Source: a virus | Lineage: Duplodnaviria > Heunggongvirae > Uroviricota > Caudoviricetes | IMG/VR virus record: IMGVR_UViG_2617270997_000026 | DNA: 36,370 bases | Reading direction: 5' to 3' (one strand) | Shown here: piece after piece, positions 1-36,370 of the stretch | Position numbering within the stretch: position 1 is the first letter of the stretch | Layout of the letters: each line of letters starts with the position of its first letter | The notes under the pieces: model-generated | What the model saw: the letters and a program-made list of their open reading frames with translations, nothing else | Databases searched by the model: none | Told to the model about the DNA's origin: nothing | Translations under genes and position numbers: made by a program

Positions 1-465
1 GGTTTGGGAGAAGGTTCTGCGTTGCCTGTTGGCGTACCAGTTCCTTGGCCTTCACCTACGCCGCCGACAGGCTGGCTGAAATGCAACGGGGCTGCTTTTT
101 CGGCTGAAGAATACCCGGAACTGGCAAAGGCTTACCCGACAAATAAATTGCCTGATTTACGCGGTGAATTTATTCGTGGCTGGGATGACGGACGTGGTGT
201 GGATGCCGGGCGACAATTATTATCTTCACAGGGGGATGCAATAAGAAATATTGAGGGATTCGCAGATGGCGGGATCGGCATGTCTTTTGATGCAATCAGA
301 GGGGCTTTTTACGATGCAGGAACACGATCAGCGACAATGGCGAATAACACAACTGCTATAGGCAAAACCGATGACCTTGGATTCGACGCCTCTCGTGTCG
401 TGCCAACAGCTAATGAAAACCGTCCACGTAACATCGCCTTTAATTATATTGTGAGGGCTGCATAA
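1..465 (+). CDS. Alternative tail-fibre C-terminal cassette (S'v-like), silent in this orientation, no own start
   Basis: Open frame from window edge. Codons 1-12 (G-L-G-E) match the LGLGE junction codons of the minus-strand fibre gene, so inversion fuses it in frame. Carries a PWP...GWLxCNG...LPDLRGxFIRGWD fibre-tip motif. Confidence 0.7.
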   Translation, partial: GLGEGSALPVGVPVPWPSPTPPTGWLKCNGAAFSAEEYPELAKAYPTNKLPDLRGEFIRGWDDGRGVDAGRQLLSSQGDAIRNIEGFADGGIGMSFDAIRGAFYDAGTRSATMANNTTAIGKTDDLGFDASRVVPTANENRPRNIAFNYIVRAA

Positions 466-1058
466 TGAAACCTGTTTTTGATGAAAATGGGATGGCTACA
501 GTGCCGGGTGATATGCGTTGTTATTATTATGATGCAGTAACGTCTGAATATACGGGCTGGTCTGATGAATATATTAATACTGGCGTAAGTATGCCCGCCT
601 GTTCCACTGGTATTGACCCGGGCGAATACATTCCGGGGCAAGTGGCAGTATTCACGGGTAAGGGATGGAGCCATGAAGAAGACCATCGCAATGAGACTGT
701 TTACTCAACAGAAAATGGCGCAGCTGTTACAGTGGATTATATCGGTGCCATCAAAGACGGTTATGTCACGCTTTCACCGTTAACGCCATACGATAAATGG
801 GATGGTGAGAAATGGGTGACGGATACCGAGGCACAGCATAGCGCCGCACTAGACGCGGCAGAAGTAAAGCGCCAGTCGCTGATTGATGCTGCAATGGCTT
901 CCATCAGTCTGATTCAGCTGAAATTACAGGCCGGGCGGAAGCTGACGCAGCCAGAAAACACCCGACTTAACGCTGTGCTGGATTACATTGACGCGGTGGC
1001 GGCAACAGATACCAGCACTGCGCCGGATGTCATCTGGCCTGAACTGCCGGAGGCGTAG
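465..1058 (+). CDS. Tail fibre assembly protein (U'-like), partner of the silent fibre cassette
   Basis: 197 aa immediately downstream of the alternative fibre C-terminus (ATGA overlap at 462-467); C-terminal DVIWPELPEA typical of tail-fibre assembly chaperones; convergent with the other copy. Confidence 0.75.
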   Translation: MKPVFDENGMATVPGDMRCYYYDAVTSEYTGWSDEYINTGVSMPACSTGIDPGEYIPGQVAVFTGKGWSHEEDHRNETVYSTENGAAVTVDYIGAIKDGYVTLSPLTPYDKWDGEKWVTDTEAQHSAALDAAEVKRQSLIDAAMASISLIQLKLQAGRKLTQPENTRLNAVLDYIDAVAATDTSTAPDVIWPELPEA

Positions 1059-1449
1059 GCCATTCAATATCTGGCGCACCGGAAGTATCGACCATTTCCA
1101 GTGCGTCCAGATAATCCAGCCACAAATTATATTGCGCCAGTTCCTCACCTTTCAGACGACCAATAGCCGCTTTACCAGGCCATTGTCTGCTGTTCATGTG
1201 CTCGTTGGCTTCATTAATAAGTTTTCCTTTTTTCAACTCTGCCAATGCAATAAGGTTTTCTTTTGATAAAGGTGGTTGCTCTGTCAAAACCGGATATCCC
1301 TCCTGATTGCTGACTATTTTCATGCCATTATCCTGACCATCCAGTAGTGACAGCCATTCATCCGTGGTTATCTCAACAGCATCTGAAGGTGCTTTATTTA
1401 AATCGGTAAAAAAACCATTTTCTTTTTGTGAATAGAAGTATCTGTCCAT
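1030..1449 (-). CDS. Tail fibre assembly protein (U-like), currently expressed partner
   Basis: 139 aa directly downstream of the fibre gene; C-terminal DIEWPTPP motif. Confidence 0.75.
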   Translation of the reverse strand: MDRYFYSQKENGFFTDLNKAPSDAVEITTDEWLSLLDGQDNGMKIVSNQEGYPVLTEQPPLSKENLIALAELKKGKLINEANEHMNSRQWPGKAAIGRLKGEELAQYNLWLDYLDALEMVDTSGAPDIEWPTPPAVQAR

Positions 1450-3881: not shown

Positions 3882-4977
3882 CAGACACTCCAGTCATGTT
3901 AAGAGTGATTGCCGTACAGTTTGCCCATTCGTTTTCTGCCACCACCCGCAGTGCCGGTGTCACCAGTTCAACCTGGTACACCCCGGAAACGGACAATGCA
4001 CTGATAATCTGGCTGGGGACAATATCGCGCCCCAGCGTGGCGGCACGTGATGCCACCCAGTTCTGTATGGCGCTGTTAGCGGCATCTTTTACAGACCTGG
4101 CATCCTGATCACGATAGATCGTAATCTTGGCTTCAATGGTGTAATCCACCTTCACTGGTGTTTTAGCCCGCACTGTATCAGTGAGTGGCCTGACTTTCTC
4201 ATCAGAGCAGAAACTCTCTACCAGCGTGAGAACACCGCCGTCCGGCAGACCGGTACTGAGCAGCGGATACAGATCTACGGTCCCGGGAACCGGGGAAAGC
4301 ACAGCAACATCGACAATGTTGGGATGGGCCTGCATGGCATGAAAGCGGTATGCGCCACGGCTTCCGGCATTGGTGAATGACTCCGGGGCCAGCCTGATAC
4401 GCTCCCGGAGCCTGTCATCGTCTTCCTGTTCTGAACCGCCGGAACTGGCCGTCAGATTGCTCACCAGCAGGTCGACGTTATCAATCTCATCGAGTAACTG
4501 ACTGACCTGCGCAGGTTGCCAGCCGTTACCAGCGGTACCGGGTTCGGTACAGGTGGACGTGACATTGACCAGCAGCAATCCGGCCTTCAGTACCACATCT
4601 GTATCGGTGGCAAAAATAACGCTGTCGGAAGCGCTGACGCGGGTGCCTGCCGGGATCAGCACATCAATGGCCAGTGCCTCATCTACGGAGAACTGGAGCG
4701 TGGTAGTGGCAGGCTGCGCGGCAAGACGGTATACACCGACCAGTTCACCGAGGTAATCAATCATCGGCTCACGGGCAAAGGCGACCAGATTCTGCTTTGC
4801 TGCCTCCTGTACCGCAACCCTGACCAGCATTTCGCGATAGGCCCACAGATCAATCAGCAGACGTTCTGCCTGTGCCGGGTACAGCGTTTTGCCGGTATCC
4901 GCTTCATACTTCGCAATCATTTCTGCCGTGATTTTGTCGGCATCGCGTTCAATAAAATCGGGTTCTGTCAGCGCCAT
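3874..4977 (-). CDS. Baseplate J-like protein (Mu gp47 / P2 gpJ position)
   Basis: 367 aa; ATG at 4977 verified; synteny within baseplate block. Confidence 0.7.
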   Translation of the reverse strand: MALTEPDFIERDADKITAEMIAKYEADTGKTLYPAQAERLLIDLWAYREMLVRVAVQEAAKQNLVAFAREPMIDYLGELVGVYRLAAQPATTTLQFSVDEALAIDVLIPAGTRVSASDSVIFATDTDVVLKAGLLLVNVTSTCTEPGTAGNGWQPAQVSQLLDEIDNVDLLVSNLTASSGGSEQEDDDRLRERIRLAPESFTNAGSRGAYRFHAMQAHPNIVDVAVLSPVPGTVDLYPLLSTGLPDGGVLTLVESFCSDEKVRPLTDTVRAKTPVKVDYTIEAKITIYRDQDARSVKDAANSAIQNWVASRAATLGRDIVPSQIISALSVSGVYQVELVTPALRVVAENEWANCTAITLNMTGVSDD

Positions 4978-5315: not shown

Positions 5316-5369
5316 GGGGGCAGTATTGCCCCCGTGCGGGAACGCTGATATTAAAGGCGTTTAAAAAGC

Positions 5370-11906: not shown

Positions 11907-11982
11907 GATTGTGCTCCTGTGTAAGTTCAGGGCAGTATGTCGGGAGAAGCGCGTGACGGATATTAAAGGAGATTAAGAAGAA

Positions 11983-17820: not shown

Positions 17821-18034
17821 TTTGCTGTCCCGCGTTATGTTGTCGGAGACAGTTTGTGAGAAATGCAGGCCCGGTGATTTTAATCTGCTTTAGAAAACAT
17901 CAGGGGAGAAGGACAGGGAAAGCAATGCGGTGAACCGGAAGCGGTTATAAAACAGAGGCTGTAAAGCCTTTATAAAGGTAATACAGCCCCTCATTCGCTG
18001 GCAATGATAAATCACCCGCCTGAAGAGAGAAAAC
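17821..18034 (-). promoter_or_regulatory. 214-bp non-coding gap inside late arm; candidate internal late promoter (analogous to Mu P_I) with nested palindrome
   Basis: Only sizeable intergenic gap in the head block; contains GGCTGT-N20-ACAGCC inverted repeat enclosing perfect palindrome CCTTTATAAAGG (about 17957-17988). Confidence 0.3.
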
Positions 18035-24215: not shown

Positions 24216-24939
24216 AACTGCTGCCTCCCCATGTGAGATATCGCGGTGCCAGTTCGCGCAGGATGCGCTGCGGATAATGGCGGTTCTCCCGCCAGCTGGC
24301 CGCATTGCGTCCGGCATTCACCGTCGCGACATGTCCGAACCAGCGGGTGCTGTCCAGACCTTTCTGTGATGCAAGCCGCCTGTCCCGTTGTACCCAGCCC
24401 AGACCACCGTTATAGCCCGACAGTGTCATGGCCATACGCTCGCAGTCACTGGCGGCGCTGACACGCTGCCACAGCCAGCGGTCATAGCTGACCAGCGCCC
24501 GGATAGCCCATGCCGGATTAAACGGCTCACGACTGCTCAGCATCGGTATCAACTGGCTTATCCAGTCGGCAGTGGCAGGCATGAACTGCGCCAGTCCCTG
24601 AGCGCCAGCCGGCGAGATCGCATCAGGTCGCCAGCCGCTTTCCTGATGCAGTTGCGCGGCGAAATCGGCCACCGGCGCAGACAGTCCCCATTCAAGCCGG
24701 GCATTACGGATCACATCATCGCGATACTGCAGCGCAGCCTGCGGAGGTTGTGCTGCGCATGCCTGGCTGAAAAAGCCGCCACACCAGAGCAACATTGCGA
24801 CAAAGAATACCCATGCCATATGAACCAGAAAGGTCCCGGCGCGGACTGACAGGCGTTCGGTTCTGATGAAGACCCGAAAGGCTTCGAAAGCCAGTTTCAG
24901 GGACATGCATACAATCCAGGTGATCTGCGGCCAGTTCAT
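24199..24939 (-). CDS. Endolysin, lytic transglycosylase (SLT domain) with N-terminal hydrophobic segment
   Basis: SLT signature AQLHQESGWRPDAISPAGAQGLAQFMP; N-terminal hydrophobic stretch MAWVFFVAMLLWCGGFF; ATGA-type coupling to upstream holin-like gene. Confidence 0.8.
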   Translation of the reverse strand: MNWPQITWIVCMSLKLAFEAFRVFIRTERLSVRAGTFLVHMAWVFFVAMLLWCGGFFSQACAAQPPQAALQYRDDVIRNARLEWGLSAPVADFAAQLHQESGWRPDAISPAGAQGLAQFMPATADWISQLIPMLSSREPFNPAWAIRALVSYDRWLWQRVSAASDCERMAMTLSGYNGGLGWVQRDRRLASQKGLDSTRWFGHVATVNAGRNAASWRENRHYPQRILRELAPRYLTWGGSSCVASD

Positions 24940-24941
24940 GA

Positions 24942-25292
24942 TTAAAGCCCCATCGCAACAGCCAGGCAGACCGCTGCAACAATCAGTGCACGGCGGATTA
25001 ACGCAGCAGAAAACACCAGGTGAAGGCCGGTCTGTACCGGGAAACGCCCTTCAGCCATCAGCCTGTCGTCATGTTTCAGGTACTGACCGGGACGGGCTTT
25101 GGGGAAGAGCGAACGGTCAAGCCAGTAACCCAGCACTGCTGCCAGCGTGATGAGTGCCAGCTTGTAGATCACAACAGGCAGCTGCTGTGGTGAGACCAGA
25201 GCGATGGTGCCCAGCAACAGCACTGAGGTCAGCAGCCAGCCGCTGAGGCGAGGTTTTTTAACAGGGGGAATGAATTTTTTCAGGTTTTTCAT
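24942..25292 (-). CDS. Holin-like membrane protein, first gene of late arm
   Basis: 116 aa from ATG at 25292 with GAGGA RBS (track start 25340 is TTG); three predicted TM helices; immediately upstream of endolysin. Confidence 0.55.
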   Translation of the reverse strand: MKNLKKFIPPVKKPRLSGWLLTSVLLLGTIALVSPQQLPVVIYKLALITLAAVLGYWLDRSLFPKARPGQYLKHDDRLMAEGRFPVQTGLHLVFSAALIRRALIVAAVCLAVAMGL

Positions 25293-25422
25293 GTGTGTAT
25301 CCTCGTTTGGTGGAGACAGCATCACAAATACAGGGCGCAAAGGATTTTAAAGCGCGTTAAGAGAGCCGGGGATACGGGATGTGCAGGATAAACGATGAAT
25401 TATTCACAGAGGAGAATACGAT
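25293..25422. promoter_or_regulatory. Divergent promoter region between late arm and P-loop gene
   Basis: 130-bp non-coding spacer between two divergently oriented starts, each with a strong RBS. Confidence 0.35.
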
Positions 25423-25899
25423 ATGACGCACACACTGAATCCGGTCATCACTGTCACTGTGTCCGGTCCTGTGGGCAGCGGTAAAAGTTACGTACTGGCG
25501 CGGATAGAAGAGATGGTGAAACAGGAACTCGGAAACAGCGTCATTGTCGATGCTGCTGACGTGGAGAATGAGCGCCGTATGAATGGCGAAGATCTGACGA
25601 CCTGGCAGAAGCCACGGGGTGGCACAGTGATCAGGCTAGAGGAATACACGGGACAGGGCCTGTTGTCATACGGCGAGGAGCGTATCTGTCGGACGAATGA
25701 GCTGCTGGATGTTATATGCCCCACGGGCCGGCAACCCTGGATACTGCCCGATGCACTGCATGCCACCATTGCGGCACTGATGACAGTTTACGATCAGGAG
25801 CTGCTCATGAAGGAGTTACGTAAACTCACCGGTCAGCCAACAGAATGTTGTTCGTCTCCGAAGTACGGCAAACAGGAAAACGCCCCGGATAATCCTTAA
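25423..25899 (+). CDS. Small P-loop NTPase-fold protein, function unknown (accessory gene)
   Basis: 158 aa; ATG at 25423 after GAGGAGAA RBS; Walker A GPVGSGKS at residues 15-22, Walker B-like VIVD about 20 residues later; transcribed opposite to late arm. Confidence 0.7.
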   Translation: MTHTLNPVITVTVSGPVGSGKSYVLARIEEMVKQELGNSVIVDAADVENERRMNGEDLTTWQKPRGGTVIRLEEYTGQGLLSYGEERICRTNELLDVICPTGRQPWILPDALHATIAALMTVYDQELLMKELRKLTGQPTECCSSPKYGKQENAPDNP

Positions 25900-25918
25900 G
25901 ATACCTCCTGAACAGAAA

Positions 25919-25934
25919 CAGCCCTGAAGGGCTG
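25919..25934 (-). terminator. Intrinsic terminator closing the repressor operon
   Basis: Plus-strand cagccc-tgaa-gggctg hairpin; on minus strand followed by UUUCUGUUCAGG; lies just downstream of stop of 25937..26518 gene. Confidence 0.5.
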
Positions 25935-25936
25935 CA

Positions 25937-26518
25937 CTAAAAAAAGAAGTGTATTATTGCCCAAACAGCTATAACGATGATTCCCAGCCCAAGAGCCGAT
26001 TCTAACTTATCTTTGGCAGTCATTTTTACTGTTGTAGCGGGCGCAGGTAAGTCTTGCTGCTGTGGATTTTCTGTTAGTTGTTTACGAGAAGAAACATCGC
26101 CCCTATTAGTTTGCTTCATGTTGATTACAGATGCGTTATGGGCATTATCAGCAGCAATTGACTGAAGTTTTACAAAAGTTTTTGAATCTGTTTTAGCCAG
26201 AAGTAACCTATTTCCCGTAAACATTGCCTTAAAAGTGATAGTTTTTTTCGTCTTGTCCGCCGCACCAAGCAAACCTCCAATGACCAACCCTGCACCACCA
26301 AAGATTAATCCACCAAGCAAACCTGCGCCTGCCGCCTTACCTATACGGCTTTCCTCTTCACTATCCGCAAGTTCAATCGATAAAAGCTCTTCTTTCAGAT
26401 TTAATACAATATTTTCAGGAAAGCCTTGTTTTGGTTTTTTGGCAAACACGATGGTACCGAACCCCATGCTTGCCCACCCTTTAGGAAAACTTCCTGCGAT
26501 AACCTGAATCCCTGCCAT
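25937..26518 (-). CDS. Glycine-zipper membrane protein with C-terminal tail anchor (accessory, repressor operon)
   Basis: 193 aa from ATG at 26518 (AAGGTG 9 nt upstream); GKAAGAGLLGGLIFGGAGLVIGGLLGAA glycine-zipper segment; C-terminal hydrophobic anchor LGLGIIVIAVWAIIHFFF. Confidence 0.7.
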   Translation of the reverse strand: MAGIQVIAGSFPKGWASMGFGTIVFAKKPKQGFPENIVLNLKEELLSIELADSEEESRIGKAAGAGLLGGLIFGGAGLVIGGLLGAADKTKKTITFKAMFTGNRLLLAKTDSKTFVKLQSIAADNAHNASVINMKQTNRGDVSSRKQLTENPQQQDLPAPATTVKMTAKDKLESALGLGIIVIAVWAIIHFFF

Positions 26519-26608
26519 GTTCATCACCTTTTACATTAAAATTTCAGAACGCAGCATGATGCCGCCTTTGTCTTTTTTCTGATCCCATGGTAATTCAGCT
26601 GTTATTTT

Positions 26609-27595
26609 CTATTTAAGAATAAAACGGTATTTACTGTCAGGAGTGCTTTGCTGATCAAGTAGCAGTGAACGACATGGAGCAGTCAAAACCCGAGCATAAC
26701 TACCATCAGGGCTTATGTTAATGTAACAAACCTTGCCCTTAACACTATAATTTTCGGGGACGGATGCCTTTGCTGATACAGTAAATTTAAGGGTATGCCA
26801 GCCCGTTTTTTGCTTGTAGCTTGAAACCGAATGGAAATCATCTGAGTACTTATTTAACCCTGGAAACATGCTGCGCAGTGCGGGGATGGAATCTTCTATT
26901 ATTTTATCGTTGGTTTTAATGTTAAAAACGCTGGTTTCAGTAGAAGCTACTGCTTTGGCATTTCCCCATTTACCAGCGAACACAATCATTCCCACGAAAA
27001 ATATTGCTACAAGAACTAACACTCCCCCCAACACTACTACATGAGGCTTCCGGCTTCTGGTTGGTACAGTTGCGACTGATTTTGCACCGCTTTCCGATGG
27101 AGGTGATAGAGTTTTACTCTCATCACGAATATTCAGCAGATCATCAAAATAACCAAACACAGCCTGCAACTGCTCTTTGTCTAGGCCTTTAAGATGGGTT
27201 GTACCGAAATGCTTCAGACAGTATCTGTCACGGTCAAGACGATACCCAGGGTCAGTAAGCGCCATTATTTTGCTGACCAGAAGATTACAGTCCTTCATAT
27301 TCTGGATCTGTTGTGCATATCTCTGAAGGATCTCAACCGCACCATGATAATCAGCCGCAGTCATTTCATTAACTGTTTTGGTATTAAGTTTCGTGTGGAT
27401 CGTCATCCATAGCTCGCGCTTACTTTCCCCCAGATCAACCAATTCATCCATCAATCTGTGTAAATCGCGTTTTTGCAGCAACGAAATTGGTTGCTGGGCC
27501 GAAGGAAGTATGTCAGCAGAATAGTTATGAATGGTAACATCACCGCTGACAACGTTACCCACATCCCCGTTAACTGTTTGCTTCTCTTTACTCAT
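26609..27595 (-). CDS. Single-pass membrane protein (accessory, translationally coupled to repressor)
   Basis: 328 aa; ATG at 27595 overlaps repressor TGA (ATGA); one TM helix HVVVLGGVLVLVAIFFVGMIVFAG around residues 183-206; C-terminal about 120-aa extracytoplasmic domain with two Cys. Confidence 0.75.
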   Translation of the reverse strand: MSKEKQTVNGDVGNVVSGDVTIHNYSADILPSAQQPISLLQKRDLHRLMDELVDLGESKRELWMTIHTKLNTKTVNEMTAADYHGAVEILQRYAQQIQNMKDCNLLVSKIMALTDPGYRLDRDRYCLKHFGTTHLKGLDKEQLQAVFGYFDDLLNIRDESKTLSPPSESGAKSVATVPTRSRKPHVVVLGGVLVLVAIFFVGMIVFAGKWGNAKAVASTETSVFNIKTNDKIIEDSIPALRSMFPGLNKYSDDFHSVSSYKQKTGWHTLKFTVSAKASVPENYSVKGKVCYINISPDGSYARVLTAPCRSLLLDQQSTPDSKYRFILK

Positions 27596-28053
27596 CTTCT
27601 CTTGGTATTTTTGTTCATTATTCCACCTGTTCCTATGGTTACGTTACCTTTGATAACATTCCCCAGAACATCTCCATGAATAACCTGTTCCGCCCGTTCT
27701 CTGGAGGAGCCAGTAGTCAAGGCCGACAAAACTGAACCTTTGACCTGTAATGGTGCCTGCCGGTAGTGCTGCAGTAACTCCATTTCATCACGTGATAAAG
27801 TTATACCTGATGACTCCCCGGTAAGAATGAACTGTACATTGGCCCCAATTCTTGCAAAGGCTGCAAGTAACTCACCTCCGGGAACAGCAACCCCTCGTTC
27901 ATATTTCCCCCACATTTCTCTTGAAACGCCACAAAGGGCTGCTACTTCAGCCTGCTTGAGTGATAACCGCGAACGCTCAGCTTTGAACCGCGACGCGCAA
28001 AGAGAATCAAAATTCACATAAACCTCATTGACAATGAGAACAATAGTTCTCAT
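27592..28053 (-). CDS. Immunity repressor (XRE-family HTH, c/cI-like)
   Basis: HTH motif LSLKQAEVAALCGVSREMWGKYERG; divergent from ner-like early operon. ATG at 28053 has no SD (possibly leaderless); alternative GTG at 28017 with GAGG. Confidence 0.8.
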   Translation of the reverse strand: MRTIVLIVNEVYVNFDSLCASRFKAERSRLSLKQAEVAALCGVSREMWGKYERGVAVPGGELLAAFARIGANVQFILTGESSGITLSRDEMELLQHYRQAPLQVKGSVLSALTTGSSRERAEQVIHGDVLGNVIKGNVTIGTGGIMNKNTKRR

Positions 28054-28103
28054 AATCTATCACATATAAAACAAACATCATTGCATCAACAAAGGAGACA
28101 ACA
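28054..28103. promoter_or_regulatory. Immunity switch region (divergent repressor/early promoters, operators expected)
   Basis: 50-bp AT-rich spacer (ctatcacatataaaacaaacatcattgcatcaac) between divergent repressor and ner-like starts. Confidence 0.45.
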
Positions 28104-28292
28104 ATGACTTCCGAACAAGTTAAAAATCTCTTCCGTCAGCGTGGTATCACGTTTACCCGCTGGGCCGAAGAACACGGCTACAGCCGCAATGAGGTCTATC
28201 GTGTTCTCAATGGACAGACCAAAGCTCGTTACGGCAAAGCCCATGAAATTGCCGTAAAACTGGGATTAAAACCCACGTCAAATGCGGCATAA
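28104..28292 (+). CDS. Ner-like small DNA-binding regulator (first early gene)
   Basis: 62 aa; AAGGAG RBS; motif WAEEHGYSRNEVYRVLNG...GKAHEIAVKLGL consistent with Ner/Nlp-type HTH; position as Mu ner. Confidence 0.55.
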   Translation: MTSEQVKNLFRQRGITFTRWAEEHGYSRNEVYRVLNGQTKARYGKAHEIAVKLGLKPTSNAA

Positions 28293-28344
28293 ATTTTCCA
28301 CATATGCAACAGGTTATCACATATTGCAAAAATGGAAATGTGAC

Positions 28345-28653
28345 ATGAGTAAAGTAAATATTTCCAGTTCTGGGACCCGCATCCTACGTGTACTCAAAGC
28401 TCTACGCGGTCATGCTCTGAACGGTGTTTCTAACGGTGAACTGGCATCAGCCCTGGGGGAGTCCCCGGCGAATATCAATCGAGCACTTAATACCCTTATT
28501 GAAGAGGGACTGGCCATGAAATTAGAGAACGGACGTTTCGCACCGGGAATCCAGTTACTACAGATCGCCATGGCTCACAGTCACGAGATGGCGCGTGCAC
28601 AGGATCGTATTAACGAAATCAACCAACGAGTTATTTCAGGTAGTCGTTTGTAA
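28345..28653 (+). CDS. Putative winged-helix DNA-binding protein
   Basis: About 103 aa from ATG 28345 (track start 28282 overlaps ner-like gene); RILRVLKALRGHALNGVSNGELASALGESPANINRALNTLIEEGLA resembles IclR/MarR-type wHTH. Start uncertain. Confidence 0.45.
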   Translation: MSKVNISSSGTRILRVLKALRGHALNGVSNGELASALGESPANINRALNTLIEEGLAMKLENGRFAPGIQLLQIAMAHSHEMARAQDRINEINQRVISGSRL

Positions 28654-35567: not shown

Positions 35568-36009
35568 ACAACGTCTTATCCAGCTCATTCATATTGCCCG
35601 TAATGAACTGGGTATGGATGAAGACACCTACCGCCAGATGTTACAGGGGCTGACCGGTAAAGCCTCAACCAAAGGAATGGATACCACACAACTAAACTGC
35701 GTGCTGGAATCCATGAAAAGGAAAGGCTTTCGCGTTAAGCCTGCCGGAAAAGCCAGCTCCGGTTTACCGCTGGATAACCATCCGCAGTCCAGGAAAATCC
35801 GTGCGCTATGGCTTGAAATGGCTGCTGCCGGCATTGTTCGTGACCGTTCAGAAAATGCATTAGCGCGGTGGATCAAGCGGGAAACGGGCATCAGCGCCCT
35901 GCGCTGGCTCAATACTGAACAGGCAAGCAGTGTTATTGAGAAACTGAAGAAGTGGCAGCACAGAGCTGCGGGAGTAAAACATGAGCGACCTGAATCAGTT
36001 TCGAAGTAA
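35557..36009 (+). CDS. GemA-like protein (Mu gp16 family)
   Basis: 150 aa from ATG 35557 after AAGGAG; N-terminus MMTKQRLIQLIHIARNELGMDEDTYRQML typical of GemA-like proteins; directly upstream of Mor-like gene as in Mu. Confidence 0.6.
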   Translation: MMTKQRLIQLIHIARNELGMDEDTYRQMLQGLTGKASTKGMDTTQLNCVLESMKRKGFRVKPAGKASSGLPLDNHPQSRKIRALWLEMAAAGIVRDRSENALARWIKRETGISALRWLNTEQASSVIEKLKKWQHRAAGVKHERPESVSK

Positions 36010-36370
36010 AGGGCCGGAACTCCTGGTGGAACTGGCACAGCATACCTCTGAGACCGTTCGCGAGATTATTGATATTGAGCCCGCAATTGCCGACCAGATT
36101 GGTCAGGCCGTCGCGAACCGCATGATGCAGGTCTGGGGCGGGCAAAACGTTTATTTCCCGATGGGCATGGTATGGAAGGTCAGTCAGCGCGACCGGGAAA
36201 TCTTCAGGGAGTTTAACGGACGTAACCACCATGAACTGGCCCGCAAATTTGGTGTTTCGCTTCAGTGGGTCTACAGCGTGGTTAAGCGGGTAAGAAAAGA
36301 AGAACTGGATCGGATGCAGGGCAAGCTATTTGCTGATGAACCCGATGTAGATACGGAGAAAAAAGAGTAA
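35981..36370 (+). CDS. mor: Mor/C-family transcription activator (middle-operon regulator-like)
   Basis: 129 aa, complete; GGAG RBS; C-terminal HTH-like ELARKFGVSLQWVYSVVKRVRK; size and position match Mu Mor. Confidence 0.7.
   Translation: MSDLNQFRSKGPELLVELAQHTSETVREIIDIEPAIADQIGQAVANRMMQVWGGQNVYFPMGMVWKVSQRDREIFREFNGRNHHELARKFGVSLQWVYSVVKRVRKEELDRMQGKLFADEPDVDTEKKE

Follow-up and report, generated by a model that had tools for sequence, protein, structure and literature searches.

Small P-loop kinases and NTPases, including the cytidylate, shikimate and uridine kinases, UreG, the ABC ATPases and members of the Pfam families AAA_18, AAA_30, ABC_tran and Zeta_toxin, share with the phage protein family described here a strand, the motif GxxGxGK[ST], a helix and a second strand. 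The likeness ends after ~30–45 residues, and the phage family lacks an ABC signature, a lid and a substrate domain. To our knowledge, the smallest natural NTPases comprise at least 150 residues, versus a conserved unit of ~75 residues here. In size and in its β-(P-loop)-α-β layout, the family resembles the engineered phosphate-loop prototypes and designed P-loop ATPases (PDB 6c2u; 9jix, PL2x4_2), which are laboratory constructs, whereas the phage family is natural and has additional conserved residues (I28, E50, W61 and E74), and binding is in its case predicted. A further likeness is with the polyvalent or modular conflict proteins of phages, reportedly described by Iyer, Aravind and colleagues, as small modules are combined in one ORF and also occur as separate proteins; the present family is much smaller (86–370 residues) and none of its modules has a recognised function.

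In bacteriophage Mu, the C protein binds a dyad centred at −43.5, and the late promoters have a −10 element and no −35 element (PMC2582627). The locus analysed here is like the Mu late promoters, including Pmom of the com-mom operon, in having a dyad box at about −42 to −43.5 and a −10 element without a −35 element, and like Mu in combining several morphogenetic promoters and one accessory gene with a Mor-family activator at the end of the early arm. It differs from Mu Pmom in that the gene is unrelated in sequence to Com or Mom and that one box appears to serve two divergent promoters.

A literature search returned nothing on the gene or on its family, PHROG 3787. We describe below a 158-residue phage protein that is best described, as judged from its sequence, as carrying a P-loop-type module far below the usual size and as occupying a putatively Mor-controlled modular slot. 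We know of no characterised P-loop NTPase whose size is not well above that of the ~70-residue N-terminal domain of this protein.

The gene and its prophage

The window, which is the whole stretch of 36,370 nucleotides that was analysed, is a BcepMu-like (Mu-like) transposable E. coli prophage. The region is identical in E. coli IAI39, the gene there encoding WP_000149906.1, and the closest isolated phage is PhiKM, classed in Bcepmuvirus. The gene and the elements that frame it are:

25423–25899, + strand: coding sequence of 158 residues with an ATG start, RefSeq product name 'ABC transporter ATPase' (WP_000149906.1)
25409–25414, + strand: Shine-Dalgarno sequence GAGGAG, 8 nt 5' of the ATG, kept in relatives
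25918–25935, − strand: GC-rich hairpin with a T-run after it, which is found on the − strand only
27592–28053, − strand: repressor gene, adjoining the cargo segment
35981–36370, + strand: Mor-family transcription activator gene (PF08765, E = 1.3e-43)

The late arm occupies the − strand, with a PF13272 holin and an SLT endolysin followed by Mu-type head and tail genes. On the + strand, the early arm starts at 28104 and comprises a Ner-like HTH protein, an IclR-type HTH protein, DUF3102, an rve transposase, Gam and GemA, with the Mor-family gene last. The 158-residue gene points away from the holin/SLT late arm and converges on the genes for a 196-residue protein, a 328-residue protein and the repressor; both this orientation and the ribosome-binding site had been correctly called in the original prediction, as had a regulation of its own, separate from that of the repressor operon. 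The hairpin at 25918–25935 has a terminator score on the − strand only, the + strand having only an A-run after it, and it is therefore the terminator of the convergent repressor operon and the 3' boundary of the 158-residue gene. The GC content of the gene (55–57%) matches that of the late arm and phage backbone and falls to 39–45% exactly at its stop codon, in the segment with the membrane genes and the repressor. An Rfam scan of 24800–28400 detected no RNA family.

The gene is carried by 571 of the 5426 complete E. coli genomes (567 at ≥80% coverage), that is by about one in ten, and by many Salmonella genomes. The protein matches PHROG 3787, for which there is no annotation, over profile positions 1–157 of 242 (E = 2.1e-107, 359 bits). 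E. coli alleles of 247 residues match the whole profile, and the window allele lacks the last ~85 positions (tail module). The family is already in databases but unnamed or misnamed. The label 'orphan' formerly given to the gene thus holds as regards function and fails otherwise, since there is a PHROG 3787 family and a fixed syntenic position. The profile and structure searches proposed along with that label gave the PHROG 3787 match, but no Pfam, NCBIfam or PADLOC match above threshold and no fold match.

Pairwise dN/dS values against alleles diverged by 4–25% are 0.17–0.35, and the 158-residue ORF is a genuine gene under purifying selection. Overlapping DNA signals as the source of the N-terminal conservation were considered and rejected, given dN/dS below 1 and homologues in unrelated genomic contexts. 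Several allele pairs have a dS of 0.18–0.27 in the N-terminal half and of ~0 (identical sequences) in the C-terminal half; this combination within the same pairs indicates intragenic recombination.

A predicted mini P-loop domain

The N-terminal part of the protein contains the following elements:

25423–25647, + strand: N-terminal mini P-loop domain, residues 1–75, the sole part conserved family-wide
25465–25488, + strand: Walker A sequence motif GPVGSGKS, residues 15–22
25642–25644, + strand: invariant E74 at the end of predicted β3, from the family alignment

The domain is predicted to fold in the order β1, Walker A, α1, β2, a short helix with E50/R51, W61 and a β3 that ends at E74, and its AF2 model has a pLDDT of ~90 over residues ~8–72. 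The Walker A motif, present exactly as first reported, has the form GxxxxGK[ST] and follows a β-strand, as in the P-loop NTPase fold. Across 44 diverse members, G20, K21, I28 and E74 are invariant and G15, S22 and E50 are conserved in at least 90%. Both the presence of the motif and its degree of conservation favour the binding of phosphate or a nucleotide. The VIVD sequence proposed as Walker B-like is found at residues 40–43, but its D43 is confined to the enterobacterial members, others having A, S or V at this position, and VIVD is thus no Walker B of the family as a whole; the invariant acid is E74, which closes the amphipathic predicted β3 strand (h-x-L-x-E).

The proteins retrieved in a first search were all close relatives from E. 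coli, with lengths of 141, 158, 182, 242 and 247 residues and with residues 1–150 in common. An exhaustive HMMER scan of 1.84 billion representatives returned 66 matches, nearly all to just profile positions 1–75, in stand-alone proteins of 70–90 residues or in proteins of up to 370 residues with an unrelated remainder. As 5 of the 25 aligned minimal-domain sequences stop exactly at the invariant glutamate, the domain is complete at ~70 residues. The conserved unit of ~75 residues, with at most three predicted strands, falls short of a complete α/β core (at least five strands, ~150 residues), and no conserved strand, lid or substrate-binding region follows residue 75 or β3 in the family. A canonical NTPase core is excluded by size.

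The P-loop module is not always kept intact, as seen from two groups of alleles. The 182-residue E. coli alleles P0028, P0030 and P0032 (one cluster holds 58 sequences) lack residues 51–86 and 96–124, and therefore W61 and β3 of the N-domain, and P0036, P0058 and P0060 have GKN in place of GKS (S22N).

Comparison with known NTPases and kinases

When the protein, its long relatives and its neighbours were scanned against Pfam, NCBIfam and PADLOC, only sub-threshold matches to the Walker A motif were obtained. PF00005 scored 13.6 bits against a cut-off of 25, over residues 4–49 only, and the NCBIfam ABC models gave E ≥ 0.005, far below their cut-offs in score. The RefSeq designation as an ABC transporter ATPase finds no support here, PF00005 being below its cut-off and the ABC signature being absent. 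Scores were 12.6 for Zeta_toxin (cut-off 22.3), 14.6 for KAP_NTPase (20) and 17.9 for AAA_30 (27), in each case over the Walker A region only. Neither a zeta toxin nor a KAP NTPase nor an AAA+ ATPase is retained, as no HMM exceeded its gathering score and no full-length domain was matched. The RefSeq names 'ABC transporter ATPase' and 'KAP family NTPase' are thus unsupported by these tests, and the original prediction was right that the protein is too small for a zeta toxin, an AAA+ ATPase or a terminase, with such Pfam matches below threshold and restricted to Walker A. The best match among the PADLOC defence-protein HMMs (E = 0.007) likewise covered the Walker A region only.

A profile search against the PDB matched only β1-Walker A-α1(-β2) of kinases, ABC proteins and UreG, and the engineered P-loop prototypes (6c2u, 9jix) were matched at the same level as natural NTPases (E = 1.7e-4 to 7e-4). 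No structural match to solved P-loop proteins was found. A nucleoside or nucleotide kinase is not supported, as homology stops at the Walker A region, PDB kinase matches spanning at most 30–45 residues; in hhalign, the family profile aligned to E. coli AroK at columns 10–38 only, that is 29 columns.

These comparisons bear on the idea of a small P-loop enzyme with catalytic activity, be it a kinase of nucleotides or small molecules or a zeta-like NTPase toxin, a possibility that we regard as very unlikely. The canonical Walker A motif with its invariant K21 would fit such an enzyme, as would the weak, sub-threshold matches to AAA_18, zeta toxin and uridine, guanylate and thymidylate kinases. 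So would the 82-residue stand-alone member of the lytic, 130-kb Vibrio phage 1.101.O (NVP1101O_043; 3989–4237 of locus L045), which is flanked by thymidylate synthase and DHFR and gives a hint of a connection with nucleotide metabolism. However, all matches lie below curated cut-offs and cover ~30–45 residues around Walker A, the AroK alignment is as short as noted, nothing is conserved past residue 75, stand-alone proteins have only 70 residues, and the gene has no antitoxin-like partner and variable neighbours. The earlier assignment to the small P-loop kinases or NTPases is not upheld, given the ~75-residue unit, the lack of conservation after β3 and the 29-column AroK alignment. If a unit of 70–75 residues truly binds nucleotides, it would be the smallest natural P-loop protein and would bear on the origin of the most abundant enzyme fold.

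C-terminal modules

A third search gave 208 cluster representatives, mostly from Salmonella, of 86–370 residues. Based on ten seed modules, the number of distinct architectures is at least 40. The N-domain is invariably in front, with ordered subsets of the other modules behind it: M9 or M3, next M4, next one of C, M7, M8 or M6, and finally B. The window protein consists of N and C, without the tail module B of the 242/247-residue alleles:

25672–25836, + strand: C-module, residues 84–138, three predicted helices, WxLPDAxHAxIAAL..YDQxL..ELRK

The C-module HMM matches 77 of the 208 collected proteins, at varying positions, and also P0067 and P0069, which have no N-domain. The modules also occur as separate PHROGs, each a family of unknown function. 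The C-terminal parts are independent modules shuffled by recombination. Alleles devoid of the N-domain are found in the same slot, in KP12 (M8 only) and in P0067 (C-module only).

In Klebsiella phage KP12 (OM835952.1, locus L053), an unannotated ORF at ~4007–4330 on the + strand follows a box, 23 nt and CAGAAT; it encodes only M8 (41% identity to the P0041 C-terminus), without the P-loop domain. The presence of an M8-only ORF behind the same promoter indicates that the promoter slot is conserved even where the gene content has been exchanged.

The commoner E. coli alleles have 242–247 residues, the 158-residue form lacks their tail module of ~90 residues, and homology to other alleles stops near codon 152, all of which might be expected of a decaying remnant, a functionless 3'-truncated copy of the 242/247-residue gene. 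We hold this to be highly improbable, as the N-domain and C-module are intact, an N + C architecture that ends after the C-module is common in Salmonella, 158-residue alleles of 83–97% identity are maintained beside two or more kinds of cargo, dN/dS values are clearly below 1, and the promoter and ribosome-binding site are intact.

A putative Mor-dependent late promoter

No sigma-70-type promoter was found for the 158-residue gene. The region between it and the holin gene contains instead a candidate activator box and −10-like hexamers on both sides, the former with counterparts elsewhere in the late arm:

25347–25360, no strand assigned: 14-bp imperfect dyad TTAAAGCGCGTTAA, candidate Mor-family activator box, common to both divergent promoters
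25384–25389, + strand: −10-like hexamer CAGGAT, exactly 23 nt from the box and 33 nt before the ATG
25318–25323, − strand: −10-like hexamer GATGCT of Plys, the divergent lysis/late promoter, 23 nt from the same box
25347–25360, 17880–17893, 11963–11976 and 5351–5364, − strand: leftward boxes, TTAA-N6-TTAA, 23 nt, [GCA]A[TA][GA]CT

The putative −10 element of Plys lies downstream of TTG 25340, the first codon of the longest holin ORF, and the real holin start is therefore ATG 25292 (RefSeq, 116 residues; GAGGAT 5' of it), which makes the intergenic region between the holin and the 158-residue gene 130 bp long rather than 82 bp.

The box, exactly 23 nt and a hexamer precede the − strand operons that start at 25292, ~17820, 11906 and 5315, the leftward hexamers being GATGCT, CAAACT, CATACT and AATACT, respectively. 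The composite motif (at most one mismatch in TTAA..TTAA, 23 nt, xAxxxT) has six matches in the window, versus 1.21 in shuffled sequences (maximum 4), and four of the six precede leftward late operons. It occurs once on the + strand, where it yields CAGGAT at 25384–25389. Two of the leftward boxes are followed by GTCTCC (those ending at 25360 and 17893). The four leftward promoters look like a Mor-box regulon of the prophage, and a late-promoter motif is now defined for enterobacterial BcepMu-like phages. These promoters are absent from the annotation of the RefSeq (IAI39) and GenBank (PhiKM, KP12) records.

At the putative promoter of the 158-residue gene there is no −35 element (GAGAGC at 25361–25366), and CAGGAT, which matches TATAAT at three of six positions, would be a weak −10 element. 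If the hexamer occupies positions −12 to −7, the dyad is centred at about −42.5, a geometry of the Mu late-promoter type. The 23-nt spacing and CAGGAT or CAGAAT are kept in five related loci (L004, L025, L027, L028 and L011) and in KP12, while the spacer sequence diverges. From this conserved arrangement of box, 23 nt and hexamer and its Mu C-type geometry, we infer that the gene is activated by a Mor-family protein along with the late genes, from a box shared with Plys, the activator encoded at 35981–36370 being the probable trans-acting factor for the dyad box. As the two RNA polymerase sites would overlap, competition between Plys and the promoter of the gene is possible.

Nucleotide homology with KP12 and with Phi06_2974 B spans the holin gene and stops at the dyad box (~25360), so that the box marks a recombination boundary between the conserved late arm and a variable region.

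Neighbourhood and variable cargo

The gene stands first among those divergent from the holin-SLT operon in all BcepMu-like loci retrieved, a set that takes in E. coli variants as well as relatives with as little as 32% identity. What lies downstream varies: two membrane genes, a convergent gene for a 134-residue protein with a Dam methylase, or other combinations. An operon with the Dam methylase was rejected, a convergent gene lying between the two in loci L018 and L014, and a toxin-antitoxin pair was rejected for want of a conserved partner.

The cargo of the window (25937–27595, − strand) is of low GC content (39–45%), co-directional with the repressor gene and situated just downstream of it. 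It encodes a membrane-anchored protein of 328 residues, the N-terminal 130 residues of which show a likeness to the flagellar regulator Flk (NF007987, E = 2.9e-12, with a score well under the cut-off), and a membrane protein of 196 residues that belongs to no family. The segment may be a module for lysogenic conversion or exclusion.

The two membrane genes are present in only one prophage variant, and the same 158-residue allele type lies beside entirely different cargo in loci L043 and L044, homology between these contexts ending ~20 bp past the stop codon. With at least two cargos beside the allele and homology that ends at this point, the membrane proteins are not partners of the 158-residue protein; the suggestion that the gene is their counterpart accordingly fails, the two being low-GC cargo of one variant and other alleles lying beside a Dam methylase or other genes.

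The same data weigh against a lysogeny-expressed moron or defence gene working with the two neighbouring membrane proteins. The gene does adjoin the repressor operon and the variable cargo region, and its C-terminal parts are variable, which would suit such a role; but the membrane genes are confined to one variant as low-GC cargo, the 158-residue allele is also found with other cargo, there is a late-type promoter geometry and no sigma-70-type promoter, and no PADLOC model is matched, so that we judge this reading to be very improbable. The placement of the gene in an accessory region, made at the outset, is right in that the gene adjoins such a region, but the promoter geometry is of the activator-dependent late type rather than that of a lysogeny-expressed gene.

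Elsewhere, stand-alone members lie between or beside HNH and small terminase subunit genes in prophages of Acinetobacter, Yersinia and other, unrelated prophages. In a Yersinia prophage, the gene overlaps the end of the preceding LysC gene by one base, at the end of the lysis cassette, and another stand-alone member adjoins an integrase.

Such positions would be compatible with an accessory role in late morphogenesis, in the packaging of DNA or in the timing of lysis, in which a small regulator that binds ATP would act with the terminase and HNH proteins or with the lysis cassette rather than in conflict between genomes. The inferred late expression and the location next to the lysis operon in all BcepMu-like loci favour it, as do the stand-alone members between HNH and the small terminase subunit and the Yersinia gene abutting LysC. 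Core factors, however, are not normally rebuilt from shuffled modules, here in at least 40 architectures, nor replaced by alleles that lack the N-domain, and the junctions of HNH with terminase genes and of lysis with terminase genes serve as general hot spots for cargo as well. In addition, a tblastn search with three family members against 50,697 phage records matched only PhiKM and one Vibrio phage, which indicates that the family is dispensable for most relatives. A packaging or lysis factor is on balance unlikely.

Mini P-loop genes were also seen in the vicinity of genes for Acb2/Tad1-hairpin proteins, which are cyclic-nucleotide sponges, at a distance of two genes in one locus (L050, 7001–7893) and of 4.4 kb in another (L048, 1180–6270). 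In the former, the gene lies in an accessory region upstream of an HNH gene; in the latter, it lies in an accessory region upstream of a DNA ligase gene.

Proposed role

The reading that we prefer, while tentative, is that of a late accessory protein built of separable modules, the first being a minimal domain for the binding of phosphate or nucleotide, which probably works in oligomeric form or as a ligand-binding handle; its likely role is in conflict of phage with host or of phage with phage. The gene, part of the BcepMu-like backbone, encodes a soluble two-module protein, a mini P-loop domain of ~75 residues joined to the three-helix module. A Mor-family activator would switch it on together with the late genes from the shared palindromic box at about −42, and the gene would fill the same regulatory niche as the accessory late operon of Mu (Pmom).

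The N-domain may bind nucleotide or phosphate through its Walker A motif (K21, S22) and the acids E50 and E74. Its size falls short of a complete NTPase core, and it would more probably work in oligomeric form, or as a handle for ligand binding or regulation, than as an enzyme by itself. The modules joined to it would be separable effectors, since they are also found without the N-domain in the same promoter slot.

The extreme shuffling of modules within a single host species points to an accessory, conflict-related role, which could be counter-defence or host takeover in late development rather than a core enzymatic function, and an anti-defence role is possible. The location of stand-alone members in late or accessory hot spots, beside HNH-terminase genes and near Acb2/Tad1-type genes, agrees with this reading. 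Against conflict, no family member matches any PADLOC defence model, and anti-defence proteins would not normally be expected so late unless the virion carries them; the weak −10 hexamer and the alleles with GKN or with deletions inside the N-domain also count against the preferred reading. The 'late accessory slot' opposite the lysis promoter, in which modular genes are exchanged, is a place to seek counter-defence or host-takeover functions.

A bolder proposal, which we consider rather improbable, is that the ~70-residue N-domain is a natural, self-sufficient minimal P-loop protein, a nucleotide-binding oligomer that would sequester or sense nucleotides or nucleotide-derived immune signals late in infection. 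It would do so by itself or while serving as handle to a polyvalent protein, in which every shuffled module would neutralise a host factor of its own. If this were true, the domain would be a living counterpart of the β-(P-loop)-α prototypes so far known only from protein engineering.

Other features of the window

An antisense ORF (25488–25769, − strand) of 93 residues, rich in Ser, Pro and Arg, lies wholly within the 158-residue gene and is most likely a chance ORF. At the left end of the window (4–1449), two ORFs, one with a tail-collar domain and one for tail-fibre assembly, occupy the + strand, against the direction of the rest of the late arm, and adjoin a − strand ORF at 1030–1449; this part of the window may be a tail-fibre segment capable of inversion, as is the G segment of Mu.
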